A DNA stretch of 63,421 bases, counting the filler, from Sluysia triapertura (taxonomy: Eukaryota), in assembly GCA_046118255.1 (NCBI GenBank). It is 5 parts of 5 records of this genome, joined end to end, with 100 filler letters (N's around TTAATTAATTAA, not from the genome) between each part and the next. Parts side by side here need not be neighbours in the genome. Positions count along the whole stretch, not along the records: positions 12,666 to 23,732 come from JBJNIA010189397.1; 4 more parts are not named here. One strand, written 5' to 3'. Numbering within the stretch: position 1 is the first letter of the stretch; each line of letters starts with the position of its first letter. Below the pieces are notes generated by a model. That model was given only the letters and a program-made list of their open reading frames with translations. It was not told the origin of the DNA and searched no databases. This document shows, one piece after another, positions 7,437-58,000 of this stretch. The translations under genes and the position numbers were made by a program.

Positions 7437-9322
7437 TCACAGAGTATCAATAGCTGATACACATATTCTTGTTGCACATGATCTTGAATTGAGTTTGAAC
7501 AGAGGAATAGCTAAAATGTAATTAAATATTAATTTAATTAATTTTTTTTAATTTTATCGACCTATTTAAAATTGTCGTTTCGAATTACAAGAAAAGATTT
7601 TACGTTGATTTTAGTACGTTATTAACCGTACAAAATTTAATAAAAATCTAAAGTGATCATTAAAGAGAACTGAAAATATTGAAGTTCAAAATAAAAGTCA
7701 AAAACTTTTTGGTTTAGAATAGTATAAACTGTTGAGTAGAACAATATGGGGAAATTAACTAATATTGGATGAATAGGCGAATTAAAAAACAGTAACCAAA
7801 ATTGAGAAAATGAAATAATAAAAATTTATGTAATTAAATGCTGATTAACACACTGGTGTCTACAAACATTGCGAGAAAAAATGATTTTATAATTTGTGTT
7901 TTTCTTATAATAAAGGGTTAGATTTGTTCATTTTTAAATTATTTTGTTATATTAATAAAAAAATTAGTTAATAATGTTAAGTTAATGTTTATACAAATCA
8001 AACTAAAGTTAAAGAAAAATTTTCTTAGTAAATTAATAAAAATGAAATTTTTTAAATTATATATTCATACGCACTCGCCAAAATATGTATGTCACCCTTC
8101 ATATCCATTTATTTATTTAATATAATTACAATGAAACTTTATCTGAGTATTACGTCTTTTAATAATATTTTAATTTATTAATTTTTCATTATAATTAATT
8201 ATTATTTTTTTATTATCATTTGTTATTTTAATTGTTATTAATTATTATCATTACTTTATGTTCTTATTATCATAATAATTTAGGATCTGCCTGACATTTA
8301 TTTTTTAAGTTTTGCTAAACTAAGTTATCTTTAAAGTAATTATGTAAATATCATATAAAATAATCTAATAAAAATAGCAGTGAAAATGAACCCATTTTTT
8401 AAATTTCTAACCTTCATCGTTGAATTTTTTGAAATGATCAAATGACTTCCACTGAACAATAACAATAAAATCTGGATTTCGAGTTCCAAACCAATGCTGA
8501 ACATTTTCAGTGGCACAAAGCAAATAACCATCATATTTTTGAATTAATTCGCTTAAATCAAGAATGTAAAATTTAAATGCACTATCGTCTTTCGTTCTAT
8601 AAAAATCAAATTGAAGACAGTGATATTCTGAAATATAAATTAGTATATAAATTTTCTTATATTAATTGTAAATATTACCATAGTAAAGAATATTTTTGCT
8701 ATGCGATAAATTATTAACTACCATGTTATGCAATGTTCAATTTTCTCTCTATGATTAATTAATTAAAATTTACTAACAATTTTCAGATTATTCCGTATAC
8801 AATTTATTTTAAATTATCAATATTTTGATAAAAAGATCTACTAAGTTTTGAAGCATAAATCACTAACTTCCTAATTAACGCACTTTTCTTAATTATTTAA
8901 TTTAATACAATGTAAAAAATTGTAAAATATATTTGCATATCACTTTTAGAATATAACTAACCTATTGCTCGTCTAAGTGGTAAGCACAAATCAGCAGACA
9001 TTATTTCGTATGTTCCAGGTGTAATTGGTGATCGCAATTCAGTTGTAGTATGAACAAATTTTATTGCATTATCCGAATTGTCGAAACTAATAAGGATTAA
9101 TGATAATTACTTGACCATAATCCATTAGAAACATAATCTTTCAAATCTTGTTTCTCAGTAATTAATAATGTAATATTATCCATAGAAAGTACCGACATAT
9201 CTCTTTTGCGACTGTGATATTCGAATAATTGACTTTCTATGAGACAGTTCAATTGAAATGTTGGAGTTATCAAAAGAACAAATTTTATAACAGATACCAA
9301 ATGCATACTTTGTCGATTAACA
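7437..9322 (-). CDS. DUF1330-like (dimeric alpha/beta barrel) protein gene, three 3' exons; one frameshift near 9103 (pseudogene or assembly error)
   Basis: Exons 9322-8962, 8627-8412 and 7510-7437 have GT-AG ends and matching phases (1,1). The middle exon is open: YHCLQFDFYRTKDDSAFKFYILDLSELIQKYDGYLLCATENVQHWFGTRNPDFIVIVQWKSFDHFKKFNDE. The last exon ends AIPLFKLNSRSCATRICVSAIDTL*. Domain call is by motif resemblance only. Confidence 0.55.
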
Positions 9323-12565: not shown

Positions 12566-12665
12566 NNNNNNNNNNNNNNNNNNNNNNNNNNNNNNNNNNN
12601 NNNNNNNNNTTAATTAATTAANNNNNNNNNNNNNNNNNNNNNNNNNNNNNNNNNNNNNNNNNNNN
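12566..12665. other. Artificial contig-joining spacer (N44-TTAATTAATTAA-N44)
   Basis: 100 bp, identical at four sites; the 12-mer has stops in all six frames. Confidence 0.95.
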
Positions 12666-14110
12666 TTGTTGATAATTAATATTTGAATATAGTGAATACA
12701 TAAATAATTGATTTATTTTTGCAGTTAATTAAATTAATATCTACTTAATTTAAATAATATTTTGAATGAAAACTGCAACAATTTATTAAAAATTTTATTA
12801 TTATTATTAAAGCAAATATTAGTGACTAAATACTACTATGGGTACTATTTGTTTGTAAATACAAAAAAGTATTAAAAAACAAGATTTTATAAATTTCACT
12901 CACAAAAAATACAAAGGAAAATGTCGATAACAGTTATAATTAAGCCTCATTTTGGAAATATTATTATTTATGTTTAAGAAACTCTGCAGTTTATTTATGT
13001 AATAGATTTGGAAAAAATTTCAGTTTAAATTTGATCGTTTCTAAGGGAAATTTTAATTTATGAAAATATAAAATAGGTGCAACTTTAAATTAAATCTTTA
13101 GTAATTTTTATATACAACATAAAATCATTTTAAAAAATTTGTAACAGCTAAATATTAATTAATAAAATTAATATTATTAAACATCCCCTATATAATATCA
13201 TGTATATTACTACTAAAGTCTAACATTCGACACTATATAAACTTACTTAATTTACAATTTTCATAATTTAACAAGTTTTTGTAATTAGAGTTGAATTGAA
13301 TATTCATCTAAGAATTGTAATTGAATTAATATTTTTTATATCAAAGTTTGATTTACCTATATAATATTTTGCGTTATAATATATACAGTTTTGTTATAAA
13401 CTTACCTGATTTAAAATTTTTAGGAATAATAGTTTTTTATTTATAATCTAATTTTTCTAAAGCTTATAAATGACTTAATTTAAAATTAAATTAATATTTT
13501 TGTATCTAAAGGTTCATATTATTATTTTGTATAATTGTTTTAGTTTAGTATAATATTTGGTGTTTATTAATAAATAACCTTAGTATTAAAGTGTGTATTC
13601 TCTTGATATTGAGTAAGATAAAATTTGAATAATTGAATTAATACTTTATAAAGTCATACTAAGTCTATTCCCTGAATTATAAGAAGTTCCTTATCAGGAA
13701 AGTTCAATAACAGCTAGATCTAACAAATAGGTAAAATCCAGAATAAATATAAGCAAAAACATCCAGTAAACGATTGTTCTATAAGTTTTATTGTTCCCTA
13801 AGTCATTCTTAAATAAGTTTTATATACGAATAATATTACAAGTTTATTATAATCTTGTTGAATAAGTTCTAATTTTATACGAATATGGTTTTTATTATTA
13901 TCACATAAGTTGTACCTGAATAAGTGTTATAAGTTTTGACTAAATTTATAAGTGATTACTCAATTAATACGAATTAATTTAAGAGTTTTATAAGATTTAA
14001 AGGATAAATCATATTACTAAATCCTAATTTCATAAGAATTGTAAGATTTGAATAAAATTGCTAAACAAATTGTACCTTTTGACGATTACAGAGCTAAATT
14101 AAGAAACTAT

Positions 14111-15794
14111 ATGGCTTTGCCAAATAATTTTAAAGATTGTATTTCACAATGGTCTTACCAGAAATGCGCAAATTTAGTGGAGCAGAGGAAGAACTCTGCG
14201 ACTTATGTGAATACGATAGTATCGCCGAAGCTATTGGATGAAACGAAACAGAAAAAGTTAAACGAATACAAAATTACCTTACTGGCGTGGCGATTCAGAT
14301 TTATAAAGACATAAATGAACAAGATAAAGCAACTTGGAACTCTTTTGTTAATGCATTTACCTAGGAGATTGCCCACGATGACATGGAAAAATGTTAAATT
14401 TAAGAAAGCAAAAAGCTAATGAATCTGTTCATGAATTCGCAAGAGCATTAAAAAATCTAGTAAATAGAGCAAAGATTGCTGAATATAAAAAAGAAATGAT
14501 TTTAAAAGATAAATTAAAAACCAGTTTACGTCCTGAATTGAGAACTTATGTTACTTTAATTGAAGAAGCATCTTTCAAAGAATTAGCTAAGAAATGAAGA
14601 AGTATAGAAAAATCTTCATGTAAAGATAAAGATAGTATTAATTATGTTAGTTATAGTGAAAGTAAAAGCCCACAGAAATAATAGAGATAAATTTATTAAT
14701 TCTAATAATCGACATGATAATTATAATAATATTAATTATAATAGAAATAATAGTAATTATAAATATAATAGTCCGCGCAGAGGTATTTTTAACTATAGGG
14801 GAATCTTAGAAATTTTAATAATAATTTTAGAGGAAATAATTTTCAGTCAAGAAGATTTCAAAATAACAGAGGAAATCGAAATGGCATGACAAATTATAAA
14901 CAAAGACCAGAACCAAGATGGCCACCAAATACAAATATAAATAATTATAGAGCTCGAAGCAAAAGTCCGGATAGATATAATGATAAGGCACAAACCAATA
15001 TTGATGGGGAAATACGCTGCGATAATTGTAACAAATATGGGCACTCTATAAGAAATTGTGGTAAGTTAAAACAAAATACTTTTAGTCAAGATTTCTCTAA
15101 GGTAAGGGGTTCTCAACAACAAAAATATCAAAGCCCTAATAGGAAAGTAAGGTTTAATAATAGTAGTAATAAAAATGAGAAGGGCCAAGTAAATGGTAAC
15201 TGTATAAATCAAAGAAAATACAACGAATATGAAGATCAATATCAATATGAAGATGACTATTACGAAGACGAAGAAGAACCTAACAGAAATAGAAAGAATA
15301 ATAAGAAGGAACAAAGAAGACATGAATCTAGTAGCGAAGAAGATAATGACTACTCAAAATTGATAACAGATAAAGAAAAGAATGCTATGCTACGAGAATT
15401 CTATATCACTGGCTTAGATTGCGATAAACATCGATATCGGGAATTCAAGAAAGATAGAAAACGAAGAGAACAAAAAGAAAGAGAAGAAAATCGATTAACA
15501 ATACAACTAATTCAAGTAAGAATCCAAGAAATATTTAATAAAGCTATAGAAGAAAGGATCGAACAGATTAAAGAAATCAAAGATGTAATTACAAATGAAG
15601 AAATGAAACGAAGAATTCAACAATTAATCGATAAATTGGAAAGTAAAACACAAAAGATAGAGCCAGAAGTAGAAGAAAGCAGTACAGAACCGAGTAGCAT
15701 GGAAGAAGAAATGAATGATAAAGAAAGTGAAATGAGTAACACAGAAGAAGATGAAACACAGGAAAAGAATTTACAGGAGAAAATGATGTTATAG
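14111..15794 (+). pseudogene. gag: Retrotransposon Gag (capsid-like domain + CCHC zinc knuckle), frameshifted
   Basis: LPEMRKFSGAEEE..AEAIG*NETEKVKRIQNYLTGVAIQIYKDINEQDKATWNSFVNAF; LRKQKANESVHEFARALKNLVNRA..LRPELR; knuckle CDNCNKYGHSIRNC at 15018-15059; then an acidic/coiled-coil tail. Confidence 0.85.
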
Positions 15795-16879
15795 AAAATG
15801 ATGTTATCAGACAAACAGATGACGAAGAATTACGAGCAGAAGAAATAGATATCGATTCAGGAGAAGAATACTACAGTGCCACCGAATATATGGAAGAAGA
15901 AATAATCAATAAAGAAATAAAAATAATTAATAAATTAGAAAAGGAACCTATATTTCTTCTTGGCAAATGAGAAAATTGATACCCTAGAATTACAAAGAGA
16001 CTAAAAGGTCGAAGAAATTTTATTAAATTTGGCTAAAGGTAAAACAAAAGCTAAACATTTAGATGAAAATTTGGATGAATTATTAAAATTAAATTTGAGT
16101 ATTTACAGTGGATATGATATTAAAATGATACTTGCTATATTAAGCAATGAAGATAGCTTATAAAGAAATAAGGCTATAAAATTATTAAGAAAAATAGACC
16201 GAAATGAAAAAGAAAATAATCCCAAAGATTTAATGAAAATGAAAATAATTATTAATGATATTACAAATATTTTAATGGAACCCCAATTATTTCAAAAGTT
16301 AAAGATAATATTGAATTAATTAATTCAAATGATACAACAATAACCGATGTTGATTTATATTTCTATGAAAGAAAATTAATTCCATATGAATTTATAAATG
16401 ATTATGGTTATCCAACTATAAAAGGAAATCATGAGGAAACAGTAATAGAATCAGCAATATTCATGGCTTATACTAAATCTAAAGAAACAAACAAATTTAA
16501 TAATAAATTTTTTGATAATTTGGCTAAGAATAAACCAATGATCAGCCCACATTAAGATAAAATATCCGACGTTGATTTAGATAATTCCCAGGTTCATTAC
16601 TAAAAGAATTACTTGAAGATAATAATAATGATAATAAAAATGAAATTATAGATATGACTAAAGATAATAATGATAATTTTGATAAATAAACCCGATTAAA
16701 TTCTTGATTTAAATAAAAACCCTCATATTGAAACAGAAAACAAAGAAACTAATACCTTCAAAAGAAAAACTGCTAGACCCAGAAAGAATAGAGACATTGA
16801 TGAAACAATAACCCCCAATCCAATACAAAGAAAACCTGTTGATTTAACAAAAATAACTTATAAAAATAATAGTGAAGAA

Positions 16880-17330
16880 ACACTTAATTCAAAAAGTGTA
16901 ATGTATACTTTATTATCGTATAAGTTTACTAATTTTGACAAATATAAAATATTATTACCTGAATTTAAAACATAAAACTGCATTACTCAAAATAATTGAT
17001 ATAGTGGAAGAAAAATACAAACATACAGATATAAGTGATCATTTGGATAACGGACAATACAAAACCATTATTAATAAGCAAATTAATGCTGGTATTAATA
17101 GAGAAAGATTTAAGATTATAATATCTTATGTGATGTTCCAATGTAATAAAGCTGTATTGGTAAATAAAGAGAAAATAGATAACGTTATAAATTTTATAGA
17201 TAAGAAACTTGGTAATTGGATAAAAGAACAAGGAGGGTGGAAAAATATTATTAAAGAAAAAGAAAAAGAAGAGAAAAGCAAACTTAATGAACCACTTAAC
17301 TTAATATCAAAATTAATTAATTACCAATAA
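16880..17330 (+). CDS. Bcl-2-family (BH4-BH3-BH1-BH2) domain carried by the retroelement; frameshift near 16970
   Basis: BH4-like NSKSVMYTLLSYKF (16886-16927, upstream frame), BH3-like ALLKIIDIVEEKY, BH1-like GINRERFKIIISY (17091-), BH2 LGNWIKEQGGW (17208-17240), in the correct order and spacing. Confidence 0.8.
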
Positions 17331-17358
17331 TTCAAATGAAATAAACCCATAACTTGGT

Positions 17359-18500
17359 ATGTCAATCAACAATATGCTTTTTATAATTGTTCTACTGGCT
17401 TTATTTGGAATCCATAAAACAAATTCTATTAAAGCTTGTGATTGCAGTCAACCACAGATTAGAAGAAAATTTTCATTATTGGATACTGAAGACTGCCCTG
17501 AAGCGAGACCCAATAAAGTTAAAATAAAAGATATGAAAATACTAAAAGTTTATGAAGAAGGAAATCTAGTTACAACTTTAGTTCGAGAATGTTCAGTTAA
17601 AAGATCTGTAGTTATATGGTATTGTGGACATCATAGTCATTCATCATTTATCGATATTTTAATGTGTTGAAACCATTTAGGATTTTACCCTATAATTGTC
17701 GTGATGCTTTTGAAACTGGGTATATAGGTTTAAATAATGGAGATAAACTTAAAATTAAAAATAATGAAAAAATAATTTATAATATAAAAACTGCAGGTAA
17801 TGTAGTATTAATGGCACTTGCGAAAGAGGTTCGATAGAATACGAAGGGAAAATTTATAACAATGTAGTAGCGCAAGAAACATAAGTTGTAAGTCTAAGAT
17901 CTTTTAATGAAAGTTTTGATTTAGAAAAAGGAACTATGATGTCACGACCATTTTGTAAAAGTGACCAAATTAGTTGTGATAGGTGTAAATCAACACTAAT
18001 ATATGAATTGGAAACTTTTCAATGTCCTCTAGTATTTTTAAAACTAATCAAATTTAATTTAGTTTCAGGACTTATGTATCAAGATGATGATGAATTAGCA
18101 GTGGAGGAAATAAATGAAAAACAAATTCATAAAGATAATTTAGATTCACCACAAAGAAAACGACTTAATGAAGTGGAAACACCGACATTACCAATGGCAA
18201 ATAAAGAAGAAGATGGATTAATATTTGTTGCAAAATGTCAGTAATTAGATGTAGTCGGGAAATTGCAGAAACTAATTATCAAAGTATTTATTTGTCTGAA
18301 AATAAAATAATGCAAGCCAAAAAAAGTATAAATAAAAATAATTTGAAATTAAATACCTACTTTAATAATAAAATAGATTTCTATTACCAATTAGGATTAA
18401 TGTCACTTGAGAAAGTGTATCAAGCAATGATAACAAGAGATTGTCAATTAAATAAAGAAATTTTAAGGACAAAATTAGCAGTAGCAATTACTAATGGACG
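17359..18500 (+). pseudogene. env: Envelope-like glycoprotein related to chuvirus-type (class III) fusion glycoproteins; frameshifted and 3'-truncated
   Basis: Signal peptide MLFIIVLLALFGI, then ACDCS..FSLLDTEDC, ECSVKRSVVIWYCGHHSHSS, NCRDAFETG, TAGNV..NGTCERG..NVVAQE, and NLKLNTYFNNKIDF..LEKVYQAMITRDCQLNKEILRTKLAVA. This Cys/motif pattern matches chuvirus-like glycoproteins. Spans ORFs 17359, 17936 and 18235. Confidence 0.7.
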
Positions 18501-19894
18501 TTATAAATAAATTAGAAAATATTATTATTCACGGTAGATTAGGATTTTTAAAGATGCCAACAAATTCACAAATATCATTACCATAAATCATATTAAATTA
18601 TCCACCAAGACCATGTACACCAATTCCAAATTGGAATAACTTAGATTGGTGGGACAGGGATGCTTCGGTGACATCAACGTGTGGATCAGCATCTGAATCA
18701 TCATATACATCAGGAATAGAAAAAGGCAATGGTAATTATAGTAATAGTAATACTAATAGTAGTATAATGCTAATAACAGGGATACAAAATAATAAATCTC
18801 TTTATATTATTACTTTAATGCTATTATTTGTGCAATTAATAACAATGATAACTTCGGATCCATCAAAATTAATATCTTAATTTTAATAGATACTGGTCAA
18901 TAGAGTTAAACATAAAAAATGAAATTCCGAAGTATTATTTGGGTATATATTGCATCTATACCAACCCATTCTTAATAAAACCACCGTCAGACATAAACAA
19001 TATTTATTACTGTGAACATTCAATTCATTATAATACTATTTTAATTATTTCATTACATAATAATAAATCTCAAACGGAACATTTTAAATATGTTTAAAAA
19101 TGTCAAATACCATAATATTACTATTGATGATTGTAATCCACCTGGCTAAACGTTAAACTTTGAATCTAAATGATTAACCGACTCAATACAACAAATATCA
19201 ATATCAAAAACACACAAAAAACGAAAACGTTTTCATCAGGACATAAAAAGTGTTTCAGAATCGCCTAAGTAGACAACATCACTCAGCATCATTGCAACAT
19301 CCTGATACTCATCAATTTCAAAATAATCATGTCTCCTTGTATCATTAGGTCTTAGGTTTCATATCATGTTTTCTTGTATCATTAATAGGTATGTGGGTAT
19401 TCTTTGATTTAACATTCGTTGACCATCAACATGACACTGAATTTTCGATCTTGATTTGTCATTTTCATCAAAGGTCATCAATATATAAGACTTGAATTAA
19501 TTTTTTGATACGCACTTTCTAAGGAGTTCACTCCTAAAATTTAAAAATATCAGCATTAAGTTTGAAAATTTTATTGTGGATGACGTTATATTATTATTAT
19601 TATTATTAACTTTATTTATAATATTAATTTCATTATTAAAATTGTTATCGTTATCCACATTGATAGTATTATAAAACGAGTGCTTAATGCACGTAAGAAA
19701 TTTATTATCATTATTGTTATCGAAAATATGAACATAAAAATAACAAAAATATACTTAATTAATTTTAAAAGGATAAAAAGAAGGCGTAACACGTATTAGT
19801 TCATGTATCACTTTTGATTAAGGATAGATCGATATTTCATTTATTACACTAATTTCACTAACATAATTGTTTAAGAACAAAATTAAATGCCTTG

Positions 19895-20737
19895 TTACTG
19901 CATTTTCCGTTTCACCACGTAGACCATATCTTGAACGTTTCTCGATTCCAAACAGAAAATTCTCAGACCAAAATTATGGCGTGTGATGAAGAATTGATGG
20001 TGTGACCATAGCTGTTTAAAGCATAGTCGTGACCAGCAGGACCATGGCATTGCTCGCCAAAATAAATTTGGATTTGGACCAGTAAGTGGTGTTGTGTAAG
20101 AATAAGACACAGGTTTTGTCACATTAAAAGAAATTACATAATTAATCTCCTCCTGTAGTGGTGGTTCCATGACCGTAGCTAGTTCTAAACCAGTAGACCA
20201 TACATCTTGTAAAATTACGAATTTAACAATATTTTTATAAACTAGATAAATCAATTCACTTTTAAATGAATGTTTCATCACCGTATCTGGGTCTGAGTCA
20301 GTAGGTGATACATTATACAAAATTATAAACTTAGTTTTATTAGATTCAAATATATGACAAATTGATGGATATGAATTCAATAAGTCGATACTTCGTAAAT
20401 TTGTTTCAGAAACATAAACAAATCGTGATATTATAACTTGATTTGAATTTCGTATTAAACATTCATCTTTCGCAATATCTGTAGTTGATTTTCCTTCAGT
20501 TAAATCTTCTATTGTATCCTTAGAATTATTTGTGCAATCACTTGTAGGAGATTCAACACTTCTATTATTTTCAAAAATTTCAATGTCCTGTAAATCTGAT
20601 AATTCTGGTTTATTATCATCGACTTTAATTAACTTTTTCTTTTTTAGCTTTCTACCACTGATAGCTCCTTGTAATGGCCGGTATACAATTATTTGGGCTA
20701 GTAATTTAAAATTTAAATTTAAATTATTTAAAAACAA
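19895..20737 (-). CDS. Uncharacterised 280-aa intronless ORF, convergent with the retroelement env
   Basis: 843-bp open frame in roughly 75% AT DNA; no recognised motif; true start uncertain. Confidence 0.45.
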   Translation of the reverse strand: MFLNNLNLNFKLLAQIIVYRPLQGAISGRKLKKKKLIKVDDNKPELSDLQDIEIFENNRSVESPTSDCTNNSKDTIEDLTEGKSTTDIAKDECLIRNSNQVIISRFVYVSETNLRSIDLLNSYPSICHIFESNKTKFIILYNVSPTDSDPDTVMKHSFKSELIYLVYKNIVKFVILQDVWSTGLELATVMEPPLQEEINYVISFNVTKPVSYSYTTPLTGPNPNLFWRAMPWSCWSRLCFKQLWSHHQFFITRHNFGLRIFCLESRNVQDMVYVVKRKMQ

Positions 20738-23732
20738 TACTACAGTACTTTAAATTAAATGTTCTTGCTTTAACACAGAAAAATAAAAAAGCGCATGTTT
20801 TATTTAATGTAATAGCTACACAAATTGAATCTAGCCGTGCGTAAAAAAGTAAAGCGCACAAAGAACTTACATGATAGCAAAGATGGGCGTAATTTTTAGT
20901 AGCATAAAAATTGCGACCAATAAATCTCTTTTTATAAAAGTTATGGGTTTTTTCAAAGTTATGGTAACAAATCAGGAACATAAGAGGTTTAAAGCCATAA
21001 AAATTCAAATCTAAGCCAAAAAAATTGAGACAGTAGATAAATGGTCCATTGAGTTGCTTCGAAAATCATTCCCATGTCTTCTCATGCTAATCACCCCACT
21101 CAGTACGTAAAATAATGGCCATCACTTACATTGTTGTTGGGTGGATTCACTTGGAGAATTATTCTCAAAAAACCACCATAAAATTCGGATCCGAATCCAT
21201 TTAAAACTACCTTTGTTCTGGGAAGAATTTTGATCCAATCTGTCATTTTTCAAATAGTTTTTAGAGATAAGACTTAAACATATATCTTGCACGTCTTCTA
21301 AAAATGCAAGATATAACTTTCTGATACTTTGTAATTAATTTTTAAAATGCAATTTCTAAATTTTTGAATTTCTTTGTAATTATTAATTAAAAATGCAGAA
21401 TATAACTTTCTTTATAATTAATATTATTTAAACAAGGGATTTTCTTCTTTCTTTTCTTTAAAATCTTTAAAACTTTCTTTTTCTTTCCTTTTTTTCTTTA
21501 AAACTTTTATGATTTTCTTTTTATTATCTTTAAAAATTTTTATAATTTTCTTTCTCGTTTCTGTAAAATCTCTACAATTCTCCTTCAATTTTCCTCAAGT
21601 TTAAGTGAATCTTTTATTGAAAGACTCACTACAGACTAATTTAACTTTGTCTTACAGACTAATAGCAATAGGACGAAGAGTGAGAGTAATTATGTTTCGG
21701 AACCAAACGCAACTATTTATAATAATAATTTATATGTTGGAGATTTTTATTCTTATTAATTATTTATTTATTTTTGGTCTTGTAATGTGTGTGATAATAA
21801 GTTAAAGTTGTGCGATGTAAAGAGTATTAGCGAATGACTTTTATACAAATACATGACTGTAAGAGGGAACAAAAGTACGGTATATGACTGAGACACCACA
21901 CTCCTGACAGGGAATTAATTGTTAGAATAAACGGTTTTAAAATTTTTAAAATTGTTTTCAGATTTATTTTTGTAGGTAAATGCTTTGACCGAAATTTTAC
22001 CAAAAAAAATATGAAAAAAATGTGAAAAATAATTAGAGGTCTACGAAAGATAAAAAATGCAAAAATAATAAAATATAAAATATTAATGTATAAAATTGTT
22101 ACATCATTTTTTAAAGAAAACTTAAAATATAAAAATATGAAGTTCCACAATTACAAAAATTATAAAAATACATAAATATAAAATTATATAATTATGCAAT
22201 TATAAAATTTCAGAATATAAAATGATACGATTAGACACTTCTAGAATTGCAAAAAACATAAAAGTGGAAAATTGTGAGGCACAAGAAAAAGTGTTGCGTT
22301 GTAATGATGATTGGATGACAGCGGGAATCATGCTTAATGTACCAATTTGGAATGTTGATGAAACAAATCTTATCAGACAACTGTGAATTTATAATGTTAA
22401 AGGGCGATGAATAATGTAGTGTTATGGGATGATGTAAGCGAGACATATGATGAGGTTTGTGTGTAATTGATTGTTATGATTTATGCGATGTGTACATAGT
22501 CGTGGGCTGAACCACCAAATATATTTATTTTATAAAATAATATAAAATTTAAACTAAATTATTTCTTTTGATAAATGCTATAATAATTCGACTTCTTTCC
22601 GCAATTTAATTTGTCTCTCACTTCTACTTTTTTTGATAAATTTTGATTTCACTTGGTTTTCCATTACTTAAGCTTACCCTGATCAATAATTTACGAGTTA
22701 CGGTTAGTCCGTAGGATTTTTAGAAAGTAAGGTACAGTGGAGGATTAATAAGTCTAAATTTGTTTAAGGTTTATTTGCAAGTTTAATAATATTAATTTGC
22801 AAAATATTATTAACTGCGATAACATATTTTCTGATAAGATAAAAATAAATAATGATTCTTTAAATATTTACAACTACATTGTTGAGATGTTTGTAAAATT
22901 TAAAATATAAAATAATAATTCGTTAAATATTTACCAAAAAACTTTTTTTTATTTAAAATACTTCTCGAAATACTCGAAAACTAACGTTTGTAAAATGTTT
23001 TATATGCCAATTTAATGAGGAAGATAAAAATTAAAGCCTTACAAACTTTAATCATTAGTTAAAAATTCATGTATTATCTTCCATCAAAATATATTTTGTC
23101 GAATTTCTTTACTTCTACAATACGGCATTGTTAGAATCATTGTAATGATTTGCTTTGTAGTCCGAATTCATCCCTTTCAATTTGATATGCAATTTTAATG
23201 CTCACACAGCATTTTGTGATTTTTCTCCTGTCCAAGATTTTTTATAATAACCCTCTGCATCTTTATCTTTTAATTTTTTCTTTGTAAATTTTTATCTAGG
23301 CAAGTTATTTTTACTAACTTATTTTTTTCACAGCCATTTTTAATTTTTCTGCTAATTTTTTATTGGTTTAATTTCTTTCTTTATTTTCAAATTTGGCCAG
23401 TTGTATGAAAGCACACCCATTATTTTATTCGATTTTAGCCAATCACAAATACATCAGCATGACTGAAAAATTCCTTATCAAACAAAGTAGCCATATTGGC
23501 CTTAGATGAAATGAAATATTAGATATTGTAATTATTATTTTCATGATTATTATTATAATTTTAATTCTTATAGTTATATTTATTATTATATTTATTATAT
23601 TTTGTAAATATTAAAAATTTTAAATAAATTTTGGATCATAATAATTAATTATTTATTTAAATAGAAAAATAATTGATAATAATCTAATAAAAGTTAAATA
23701 AAAATTAATTAAATTAAAATGTTTAATTTGAA

Positions 23733-52900: not shown

Positions 52901-53107
52901 ATATCGTAGTTAATTGATTCGTATCAATTGATATCATGGATTTATGATGTTAATATATGAAAGGTTTTCAGGACTTATTACTATCTCAAAATATCTGGTA
53001 ACAAGAAACTTATGCTGCATTTTTTAGTTCCGTAGAAAATGACAGAAACTACGATAATATGGCAAATACAAATTGAAAAGTACAAAATAATTTTCAATTT
53101 ATCATAC

Positions 53108-53387
53108 CTTTTCATTAGTATTTTCAACTACACATTCTTGACCATCAAGTTTAGAAAAATCACCAGGACACCATTCCGAGGTTCCAGAACAGAATTCAGG
53201 TAAATCGCATCCAGGATGATTTCTGATTGGCAAATTGTTTTCGTATTTTCCACGACAAGTGACCCCTGACTTTTTATATTGGCATGTAGATAAATCACAA
53301 CATGATCCACTGGCACATTTAGCATTTCCGATCAATTTACATGTGCGATAATCACAACAACGACGTACTGCTTCAGGACATGTGTTT
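53108..53387 (-). CDS. ADAM disintegrin exon
   Basis: NTCPEAVRRCCDYRTCKL..CASGSCCD..CDLPEFCSGTSEWCPGD. Confidence 0.92.
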
Positions 53388-55029
53388 CTAATAATAATAA
53401 TAATGATAATAATAATAAATAATAATAATAACTCATTTCCACAATCACATTCTTCACCATTTTCTAAGATACCATTACCACATTTCGTAATTGGTGGAAT
53501 ACTTAATGGTTTTATATTCCAAGAATTTTCACTAAGAAATGCTTTCTCCAATAAATACGTACTATTATTTGGATAATTGTTAAGACATTTCAAATAACCT
53601 ATTTTTAACAATGCATTCATATCTCTTACTGAACAATCGGACCAGATCATTTTCATGTCATTATATCTGAAAAAATAAAAAACGTATCATTGAAATTAAT
53701 TACTTCCTTATAGTAGTATGTTTTCTAAAATTTATTTCTAAGAATAACCTCTCAAATTTAAAAAAACAATGAGCTTAGTGAAATGGTTCGATCAGTCTAT
53801 CTGTTAGAATTGTATTAGAGTGATTGAAACCTCTACATAACAAACACTTCATTTTATGAAAAAGTGTAATTAACGCTTCAAGAATATATAAATAAAATCA
53901 AAAAACATTTTGTTTTAATATTAAATTTTATTAAAATTTACTTCACAATCTTCAACCCTTAAATGAAAGTACGGAACAATCAGAAAAGAGTAGGAAAAGA
54001 TACACTATTGACCAAAGAGATATGGCAACAAAATTCTCAAAAATGAAGTGGATATTATAAATAAAAATGAGTTTAAAAATGCAAAGAGTTTACGAAAACT
54101 TCACTTTAAAAATTGATCGCTTAGTGTATGAGTGATTTGTTAAGAAAAGACACAAAAACTTCATTATATCTGGCGATATGTTCCAGACTATGGCACTACG
54201 AATTTCAACGAAAATGAGTAAGGGTACTTTTAAAGCTTCAAATGGATGGCTTGAACATGTTTCAAAAGTAGACATAATATAAGCTCAAAAGTTATTTCAG
54301 AAGTCTTAGTGGATCAAGCATTAGTAGACAATTTCAAAATATAAATACGACAGCTCATTTTTGTTTGTTTATTAGATTGTTTGTTATTTCTTTTAACGAC
54401 CAAATTCAATAACTTCCAATGTAACAAGATTCAAATGATACTACAGTTTCAGAGAGAAATATTTACCAAATAGACAATGATGAATTCGTTTTTTGAAAAT
54501 GTGAAAACTATTGACAGATTTTAGCAAGTTTTTGATGAAATATTAAAATAGTGATTGGTTAAATTTTTTAGTGAGTAAGACTTGACGAATATATCGTTAG
54601 CAGAAATTTTCGTAGAGTTTTTTGATCTATTAAATAATTGTTTTAATCTATTAAATAAAAATTAGAATATATTAAAATAAATAAACAAACAATTACATAC
54701 AATATTATTTTTCTAGTTGTAGAGTGAAATAAACAACCACGCATTTTTCTATAGAAACCAGCAGAATGCTCAGGTTCACCAAACTTTCTAAGCTCATTTT
54801 CATTAGAAGCCTTGCTTCGAATTGCAAAATAATTCCTTACGTGTCATCATTATTTTTCTGCTATTTGCTAAATTGTCATTAATATTATCCTATCTACCAA
54901 TTGCATTAGTTATCTGGCTTTGATTTATTTCTGCATTTTGTTTCGTTTCTCTTGAATTGGCGAATGCAATTTTAGGAAAATAAAAAACTAGAATTTTGGA
55001 AGCAATCAAAATAAAGTGAGCAACAAATA

Positions 55030-55082
<53 letters not shown>

Positions 55083-58000
55083 TAACTCTTATTTATTGAT
55101 TGTAAATATGATTTAATAGATCGAAAAACCCTATAATATTAATTGTAAACGTCGTAGACTTGATCAATGTAAATAGCCGAACACACTAATAATAATAACT
55201 AACGTAATGCCAGTGGACATTATACAATCAATACAATTACATTCTTCTGTATCATGTTTAAGACCAAATGTGTGACCTATTTCATGAACCACAGTTCGAG
55301 CCGTATCTAAAACAGTTAGATATTTGTTGTCCTAAATTAAATTTAATTGCATAAGACAACTAAAAATACAAATCTATATCTATCAACAAATATGATAAGA
55401 TCTGTAAGAATAGCTAGAATATTATATAAAGGTGACTTAATATTCGCATAAGAAATACGCAAATACAAACTAATTATATTATATTATATTATATTAATGA
55501 AAAATGACTATTTGTCCCTTTTCATAAGTACAAACCGTCTTTAAGCATTGTATGTAAGATTTTCAAATAAGTGTATGCAATTAGAATTATATAAAATAAA
55601 TTGACCAATTAAAATTGAATAATTTGTTTTTGTATTTTTACCATTTTGGTATGTTTGGTACACATTTGTACTACTTACGATCACTGAATCGTACTTAAAT
55701 TATTAAGCGACTGTTAGGACTGTACCACACCGTAATTATATTCTTTCCCATATAATATTAGAGTTTTTCAGCAGATTTATGCTTACATTTGGCAACATTA
55801 TTATTGACATTATTGACATTATTACAGTGTTATTATAAATTTATTTGCAATTCCAAGTGTTTTTTAAAATAATCATATTTCTAAACACTTGGCAAAAGCA
55901 GATAATTTGTTACACATATTTTTTACTATGCATCATATTGAGTGGTGCTAAGGAAAAATAAAACATAATTTATCTTTACATTTATTTGCTGTAATTTTTG
56001 GTATCAATTCTATGAAAAATATGCTGATTGTTTGTTTTGTTTTATTTTATTGAAACGTTTCTAGGAGTCATTTGAGTCATTTAAGCATGTTCATAAAGTC
56101 CAAAATCAAAATTTATGAAAATTGGAAGCTTAGCAAATTTTGTAAATGGTTCCCATTTACTTTCATGTTGGTGAGAAAGAAAAACCTTATTCCAAGTATC
56201 CGAATTCAATTCAGACAAAGCATGGATCAATGAGTTCACAGTTTCACAGGCCGATTCTTGCTGCAAAGAGCTTAACCCTTTCAATACGACTTTTGGCCAG
56301 TGAAGATATTTCTGTATTATTGTACTAAATGTGCTGTAAATAAGTAATGGAGCATGTTTACATAATTTCAGACTTTAAGAAAATATAAATATCCCCGTAG
56401 TATTGAAAGGGTTAAATCTAAGATGTTTATCTTGTTTTACATTTATTGAGGCTTGCTTCAATTTAATTGTCATGTGCTTTTTGCCGAAAACCTCACTATA
56501 AAAAGTGTTTTCGAAAGTGGTTACTTTTAAAATTCGAAATCGGACACTTATTTCAGACACTTAATATGTGAATTGAATACATTATTATAGAGGCATTATT
56601 AAAACTCAAATCCAGTATTGTGTGGAATTGTAAATTGTATTTGTATTACAGTTTGATAATTAACATATTCTATGCGGGCTATTTTACTCTAATCCAAGCT
56701 GAAAAGCGGGAGTGATTTTTGATTATTTATAATTTCTAACGGTTCCGCGATACTATGTGCAGAACGTGTTACCTTGTTTCCCGCAGAAAATGTTTTTTAT
56801 ATAACTCATTTTTTCTTGTGTCATAATTATTTTTATTTTCATATTTTCATATTTTTCGCACAATTTGCTTATCCTACATATCCTAAATTTTATAATCTTA
56901 ATATTATTCGCACATTTGAAACATTTTCACTCAATGTCTTCGTGATAAAAGTAAAAGAAATTGTGATACTGCCAACAATATGTTACCATTATTCTATTAG
57001 ACGACATATTTGAAAAGACTCATAATTTACATGTCACAATGACATTCCTTTCTAATGATTTTAATGCTGTTGTGGTCGTAAAGAAAGCATTTTGTTACCT
57101 GTTCACTCGTTGCTGTGTTAAAAAATCTGACCAAAAAGGCAGTTTTGATACATCAAACATAATTTATTAATGATCAAATGTATATAATACATCAAAATGC
57201 AAATTAACAATATAATTATCCCTATATATATGTCATTTGAATATAACATATGTACAAAACATAGATATTTATGGTTACCATGGTTGCACATAGAACCCCA
57301 ACTCTGATTAAAAAAAATTTTCAAAAACCTTCCCGGGGATATAATTTGCCAAAGTTGGATGTATAGTTTTTGAATCTATCGAGTACAGACAGGCAGACAT
57401 TAATTTCTCTTTGATATAATATTTTAATGAAATGTAAATCTTACTTACTTGAACAACAGCTGTACATTTCATTGGACTACATATTGAATTTGCATTTGCT
57501 TCTCCCACTCCATTTTTCATCCTTGCATCACTTCTGCAAATTAGTAAATTAATGTTTAATTTTTTGTGATTTAAAAAAACTAGTTTAATTAATTAATTCA
57601 TTTTTCTAAAAATATAAACAAACAAACATCATTAAATTTTTTTAATTCTACTTTTGTTCTATAACTTTATTTATGTAGAATTAATAATTTATCTCTGCAT
57701 TCCCCGAAAATAAGACAGGGCTTATATTAATTTTCACTCCAAAATATAACACTAGGGCTTATTTTTGGGGGGTGTCCTATTTTCATATATCGAAAAGAAA
57801 AATTATGCAACCTCTAAATATACAAAAAACCGATCTACATTTACTAATAAATTTACTTGATAATACGAACATACAAAAATATAATAAACATTTATACAAC
57901 AAAGATTTTTCAAATTACTATTTTTCTGCAGCATGTACTTTTCTTAAAAATTCATCGTTATCCTTAATAATGTTTGTAAATTCTTCACAAGATTTTGAAA

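Follow-up and report, generated by a model that had tools for sequence, protein, structure and literature searches.

A decayed, truncated multi-copy repeat of Sluysia triapertura with likely gag, Bcl-2-like and envelope parts, most likely a Burro-like retroelement

The DNA analysed here is a window of 63,421 nucleotides from the genome assembly of Sluysia triapertura (GCA_046118255.1), and its subject is a decayed repeat copy, most likely of a retroelement, on one contig of that window (positions 12666–23732, JBJNIA010189397.1), which is gap-free and contains no N. All parts of the element lie on the plus strand. A 5′ leader of multi-copy sequence with a degenerate short repeat (13600..14110) is followed by a broken gag capsid-like region, spread over three frames with premature stops (14111..14680), and by an Asn/Arg-rich stretch (14680..15059) with a CCHC zinc knuckle at its end (15018–15059). 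Then come a Glu/Lys/Arg-rich charged linker, likely a coiled coil judging from its translation (15060..15970), a broken coding stretch without family match (15970..16970) and a Bcl-2-like domain (16974..17330: scoring piece 16974–17327, stop codon 17328–17330). Next, in four frame pieces (17359..18493), comes an envelope glycoprotein of class III (gB-type, Monjiviricetes-like), of which the N-terminal half is present; it runs into a junction (18493..18495) at which sibling contigs end or begin; 3′ of it lies a further multi-copy stretch without family match (18494..19142, plus strand). A sequence-only reading of the locus had described a retrovirus-like element of this kind without introns, and the layout bears this out: gag-side region with knuckle, charged stretch, Bcl-2-like domain and glycoprotein follow one another on one strand of a gap-free contig, and the colinear pieces leave no space for introns. 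In a genome with a G+C content of ~25%, the purine share is 0.58–0.65 over the element parts and 0.49–0.50 in the flanks. The stretch is a multi-copy repeat of which this copy is decayed and truncated; with gag, Bcl-2-like and envelope parts likely, it very probably represents a Burro-like gypsy retroelement of planarians with the order GAG-ENV-POL.

Sequence comparison makes the assignment of 16974–17327 as Bcl-2-like likely. The profile PF00452 matched this piece with E 7.1e-4, and with E 3.4e-4 when it was trimmed, both below the gathering score; TIGR00865 matched with E 4.8e-4, below its curated cut-off. When the piece was compared with the PDB by phmmer, the best 60 of 66 matches (E ≤ 10) were all Bcl-2-family chains, with a best E of 0.019. 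The earlier claim of a domain with all four BH motifs stood in part: the BH1–BH2 half scores, BH3 and BH4 were recognized by eye, and the BH4-like part (~16890–16970) lies in another frame than the Bcl-2 piece. The Bcl-2 frame closes with the stop at 17328–17330 and carries no tail anchor, its best hydropathy window being 1.45.

The envelope begins ~30 bases past the Bcl-2-like piece and 2.3 kb past the knuckle, with no pol between. It opens at the ATG at 17359, in another frame than Bcl-2 in this decayed copy, and a signal-like hydrophobic stretch starts at ~17371; the tables of sibling contigs show no gap listed at the boundary. PF24664 (Monjiviricetes_fusion) matched two pieces above cut-off (E 4.3e-11, profile positions 3–94; E 9.9e-8, positions 267–355) and a third weakly (E 0.04, positions 149–207). 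The signal-peptide glycoprotein proposed earlier agrees with the profile matches and the signal-like hydrophobic stretch, and profile searches returned both expected families, the glycoprotein above and Bcl-2 below cut-off. We aligned the envelope by hand with six Platyhelminthes_C1a rows and with nematode rows of the supplement to PMC13524379, BEL-associated rows being left out. Among the rows compared in this portion of the supplement, Smed_errantivirus_1 is identical at 30 of 86 ungapped positions by hand count (17813–18070), eight of eight cysteines correspond by eye with the Platyhelminthes_C1a pattern, and the nematode rows do not fit by eye. From this envelope class a planarian flatworm is likely as the host. 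A metagenome scan yielded a sole relative, L001, with 44% identity to the envelope over 54 residues, and three scans of a viral contig collection gave no match. In L001, a metagenome contig of 1806 bases, positions 202–1236 hold a decayed envelope that covers profile positions 298–609 and includes a likely membrane anchor; it goes on through positions 390–609, beyond the point at which the present copy is truncated, and the L001 sequence 3′ of it has no family match.

On the gag side, the knuckle at 15018–15059 is the sole C-X2-C-X3-GH-X4-C in the six frames of the window, and the pattern was found in none of 200 block shuffles; the zf-CCHC profile matched it with E 0.0078, below cut-off. The region 14111–14680 presumably resembles a gypsy capsid, as judged by eye from its motifs, and its capsid-like motif frame starts at ~14140, in another frame than the ATG at 14111. 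Of the gag with CCHC knuckle proposed from the sequence, the knuckle therefore holds, whereas the capsid rests on motif recognition by eye. The ~1.1 kb of charged coding sequence once proposed has to be adjusted as well: the distance from knuckle to Bcl-2 is ~1.8 kb, charged for about half of its length. The linker (15060–15970) shows an AT skew of 0.4–0.55 and had no family match in the profile scan. Within 15970–16970, a segment at ~16237–16435 looks ubiquitin/SUMO-like by eye; neither it nor the stretch as a whole found a supporting match in Pfam, NCBIfam or PDB.

We placed contigs of two runs on 12700–23700, namely 12,826 in X1 and 1,042 in X2 (counts inflated by low-complexity A+T sequence), and 30 of 30 bins were covered in both. 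By identity, the X1 contigs fall into 882 at ≥99%, 2,224 at 95–99%, 4,678 at 90–95% and 5,042 below 90%, that is, 9,720 of 12,826 are less than 95% alike. Repeat-family cover extends upstream to at least ~13230 and downstream to ~19142. One X2 contig spans 17229–17488 with 0 differences and crosses the boundary between Bcl-2-like domain and envelope. This junction accordingly recurs letter for letter, which argues against the chimeric contig that the sequence-only reading had considered; X2 is a possible source of the assembly, so that the bridge is perhaps not independent. The variant sites 17353 and 17395 occur in 19 and 20 X1 contigs, whose ends lie as much as 70 and 64 letters away, and we infer that diverged siblings cross the boundary too.

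The copy itself is dead, as had been suspected. By eye we counted at least 10 frame changes plus several stops; the envelope is cut at ~18493, corresponding to profile position 355 of 653, so that its C-terminal half with the membrane anchor is lost, and the window holds no pol. This copy cannot make the proteins of the element. At the junction, the match of X1 record 7 stops at 18494 (76 letters of the record remain) and that of X2 record 13 at 18495, X2 record 14 begins at 18494, and sibling envelope contigs continue there in other sequence; because siblings diverge or begin at 18493–18495, this copy is taken to be truncated at that point. A second edge lies at 19142, where contig records end in both runs. 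Between the two edges, a plus-strand frame of 97 codons (18587–18877) contains a Ser/Asn-rich part and a hydrophobic segment with a hydropathy of 2.6. Pfam and NCBIfam profile scans of 18494–19142 gave no supporting family match, and protease and dUTPase, which follow env in Burro, were likewise not matched after the junction. The stretch probably belongs to the same element, as a part lying closer to its 3′ end, and is possibly another repeat. Further downstream, a 284-codon open frame on the minus strand (19898–20749) consists of multi-copy sequence, with no Pfam and no meaningful NCBIfam match.

Upstream of gag, the leader (13600–14060) contains TAAGT nine times (shuffle mean 1.3, maximum 5 in 2000), and leader variant sites at 13228–14003 are present in 7–25 contigs each. 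Beside this short repeat, ATACGAA occurs three times. Self-BLAST of the window showed no flanking repeat pair of long terminal repeat (LTR) type, and neither the true 5′ end nor an LTR could be located; among six TGG sites upstream of gag, none resembled a primer-binding site by eye.

The remaining parts of the window are joined to this contig artificially: the scaffold joins at 12566, 23733, 36768 and 49162 each consist of a 12-base spacer with stops in all frames, flanked on either side by 44 N. Since the joins are made of spacers, the order of parts across them is no evidence of linkage. Elsewhere, the window carries host exons that encode a guanylate/adenylate cyclase domain (44338–47963, plus), exons of a host ADAM-type gene (53105–55331, minus; reprolysin 55167–55331, disintegrin 53105–53686) and a DUF1330 match above cut-off (8410–8661, minus, E 7e-6). 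Three inverted pairs of old repeats are 73–84% alike (50416–50818/58832–59253, 24370–24498/32125–32253 and 9151–9302/10800–10960).

Several results weigh against a Burro-like element with gag, Bcl-2-like and envelope parts. The Bcl-2 scores lie under the curated cut-offs, and the BH1 of the piece differs from NWGR at two of four positions, glycine included. A single-sequence fold of the piece gave a low-confidence model (predicted local distance difference test score, pLDDT, 49.9), with which Foldseek reached a best E of 0.3 at a root-mean-square deviation of ~11; the 36 matches listed are all Bcl-2-family chains, none of them significant and likely sequence-driven. In the VIA structure comparison the best Z was 4.5, to a protein that is not Bcl-2, with nothing at Z ≥ 5. 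Capsid profiles did not match in Pfam, NCBIfam or PDB searches. No contig in X1 or X2 extends across all three parts. A protein search returned no close intact relative (1193 longer plus 52 near candidates for the Bcl-2 piece, 32 longer ones for the envelope piece). A HMMER search with a one-frame read-through, X marking the interruptions, gave 0 matches against 1.84 billion representatives; it was probably blunted by out-of-frame residues, because long read-throughs lost the envelope match too. Reverse transcriptase, RNase H and integrase were not matched by 145 window pieces taken singly or by 12 contig read-through frames. One knuckle is present here compared with two or three in Burro, and profile scans, on pieces that are short and decayed, found no MATH, BIR or ankyrin match. 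The planarian host, finally, is judged likely from the envelope class.

In spite of these points, the Burro-like assignment remains our preferred reading, and it suggests how intact members might work. Translation of an LTR-driven RNA would yield the product Gag-linker-Bcl-2-like-Env(-Pol). Its glycoprotein would be targeted to the endoplasmic reticulum by the hydrophobic stretch at ~17371, which could also serve Bcl-2 as a tail anchor, provided that the two share a frame as they do in Burro. Gag would form particles able to carry the class III fusogen, while the predicted cytosolic Bcl-2-like domain may damp host-cell death during expression of the element, with putative envelope-mediated spread between cells. 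That the predicted domain damps host-cell death in intact members seems to us fairly probable.

Not all alternatives conflict with a Burro-like origin. In one variant of the layout, open reading frame 1 would end after the Bcl-2-like domain, leaving it soluble or Gag-tethered, and env would be a separate gene with its own start and signal peptide. We consider this unlikely. It agrees with the stop at 17328–17330 and the env ATG at 17359 in another frame, and ~19 diverged X1 contigs cover 17353 while the gap table is empty between 16971 and 17806. However, a copy with at least 10 frame changes may be expected to hold one more, and the same table also misses a known frame change near 17660, which was seen as loose ends; 867 loose-end and 415 substitution rows lie beyond those listed, 17244–17283 was skipped as repeat, and the Burro env is in frame (PMC6431247). 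More specific and somewhat less likely still is a compact, high-copy sister of Burro, whose Gag frame with a single knuckle would end in a free Bcl-2-like domain, followed by a gB-type env with its own start and, 3′ of it, by another unit that is membrane-bound or secreted; such a lineage, if real, would be a flatworm retroelement that has an envelope and depends on Bcl-2 instead of IAP to keep its host cell alive. The Bcl-2-like domain might also be real and yet not block death, serving as an envelope spacer or membrane tether or persisting as a decayed passenger, which appears rather doubtful but deserves more weight than the two layouts above. Its BH1 is non-canonical, and PMC9027176 describes the NWGR motif as crucial to the pro-survival role of most members of the family; in human Bcl-2, Bax binding is lost with a BH1 change of this sort, as listed in PMC6825947. 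The anti-death activity tested in Burro1 is attributed by PMC13465017 to the RING/BIR region, and summed contig depth is much lower over the Bcl-2 core than over env, a weak hint as depth is not copy number. On the other hand, the BH1 of a decayed copy may not reflect the state of the family, the viral homologue ORFV125 has an altered BH1 and still binds BH3 peptides, if more weakly (PMC9027176), and the presence of a BCL2-like domain in several Burro families, as reported in PMC6431247, suggests that it is kept by selection.

Other readings give up the Burro-like element altogether. A non-autonomous family that never had pol, the gag-Bcl-2-half-env unit itself being amplified, would account for the lack of pol in the window and for multi-copy sequence on both sides of 18493. 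We judge it highly improbable: siblings stop matching at 18494–18495 and others start there, so that, in those contigs, the family lacks this junction, and the envelope of L001 continues to a membrane anchor. Unrelated pieces nested by chance, or a chimera made by the assembly, could be invoked given a gappy assembly with artificial spacers, the lack of a contig over all parts and the real junction at 18493. Such an origin is scarcely credible for a single contig without N whose parts share one strand and a purine share distinct from the flanks, with the zero-difference bridge in X2 (not surely independent) and an order equal to the published Burro order. Equally little speaks for a BEL/Pao element of Anakin type with a captured chuvirus glycoprotein, the capture that the sequence-only reading had invoked. 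BEL gag has several knuckles, and in Anakin-like BEL/Pao elements env lies downstream of pol. The locus has one gypsy-type knuckle, and no pol separates its env from the gag-side region upstream. PF24664 does cover chuvirus-type glycoproteins, and their capture has been published for mosquitoes (PMC7642597); by eye, though, the envelope matches flatworm gypsy errantivirus rows in the consulted part of the supplement, a comparison that BEL-associated rows stand outside. The envelope lines up with the HSV/gB-type errantivirus envelopes of flatworms, and its position straight after the gag-side region does not fit a capture of BEL/Pao type.

The Burro-like reading can be set against four known systems. 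Mosquito BEL/Pao elements of Anakin type captured a chuvirus glycoprotein (PMC7642597; mentioned in PMC13524379) and have the broad glycoprotein family PF24664 in common with the locus, whereas gene order and, by the envelope comparison, lineage differ. Much closer are the flatworm elements placed among GAG-ENV-POL errantiviruses of HSV/gB type (PMC13524379, eLife 2026), of which Smed_errantivirus_1 to 6 (Platyhelminthes_C1a) are listed with 45, 215, 3, 8, 1 and 1 intact copies. The envelope ectodomain is colinear with theirs by eye and shares the cysteine pattern, env comes after the gag region without pol between, and both are multi-copy; those elements are intact, whereas the copy here is broken and truncated. 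In the main text of PMC13524379 neither 'bcl-2' nor 'burro' occurs, and the C1a elements were compared by envelope and order.

With respect to the cargo, Burro1 is the relevant precedent: it protects planarian stem cells via a RING/BIR (B-IAP) region, according to PMC13465017, which summarises Lee et al. 2026 (Dev Cell), and is under PIWI control (PMC8532177). Both are planarian retroelements with anti-death cargo, if the present assignments are right, but the active cargo of Burro1 is RING plus BIR (B-IAP) and not Bcl-2, and BIR found no match here. Unlike the IAP of Burro1, a Bcl-2-like cargo has no functional test in the texts examined. If intact members indeed keep stem cells alive via Bcl-2, planarian retroelements would have a second anti-death strategy, independent of the first.

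The layout as a whole is that of the Burro/GYPSM1 elements, gypsy-like LTR retrotransposons of giant size known from Schmidtea mediterranea and Dugesia tigrina (PMC6431247, Arkhipova and Yushenova 2019, section 7, to which the following refers). Their order is Gag with 2–3 CCHC knuckles, Smc, MATH, SUMO-like, BCL2-like motif, Env and protease; Env is in frame between BCL2 and protease and matches mononegavirus fusion glycoproteins, and the further cargo domains (MATH, SUMO-like, BIR, ankyrin) vary from one Burro family to another. In Dugesia japonica, decaying Burro fragments with stops and frameshifts are described. The locus agrees in a CCHC knuckle, here next to a gag-like region recognized by eye, in a charged stretch (Smc-like in Burro), in the BCL2-like motif directly upstream of env, which here scores below cut-off, and in the mononegavirus-type Env that follows. 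It differs in that gag start to Bcl-2 end measures only ~3.2 kb, and in that env is out of frame in this copy and in frame there. Burro exceeds 30 kb and has paired LTRs and a gypsy PR-(dUTPase)-RT-RH-IN region (protease, reverse transcriptase, RNase H, integrase) after env; the window contains neither pol nor LTR, and the contig is 11 kb long. The published order and the envelope rows support a gypsy-type retroelement that carries env and a Bcl-2-like domain and is related to Burro. The combination is not novel, as the earlier reading had left to a literature check: the same order, the proposal that Burro elements are integrated proviruses and the idea that these meddle with apoptosis are already published. 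With the layout known since 2019 and the envelope class since 2026, the locus adds little as it stands beyond a divergent, abundant family in another genome, its envelope ~35% identical by eye to the best listed relative; it is a new example of the published Burro layout, not a new kind of element.

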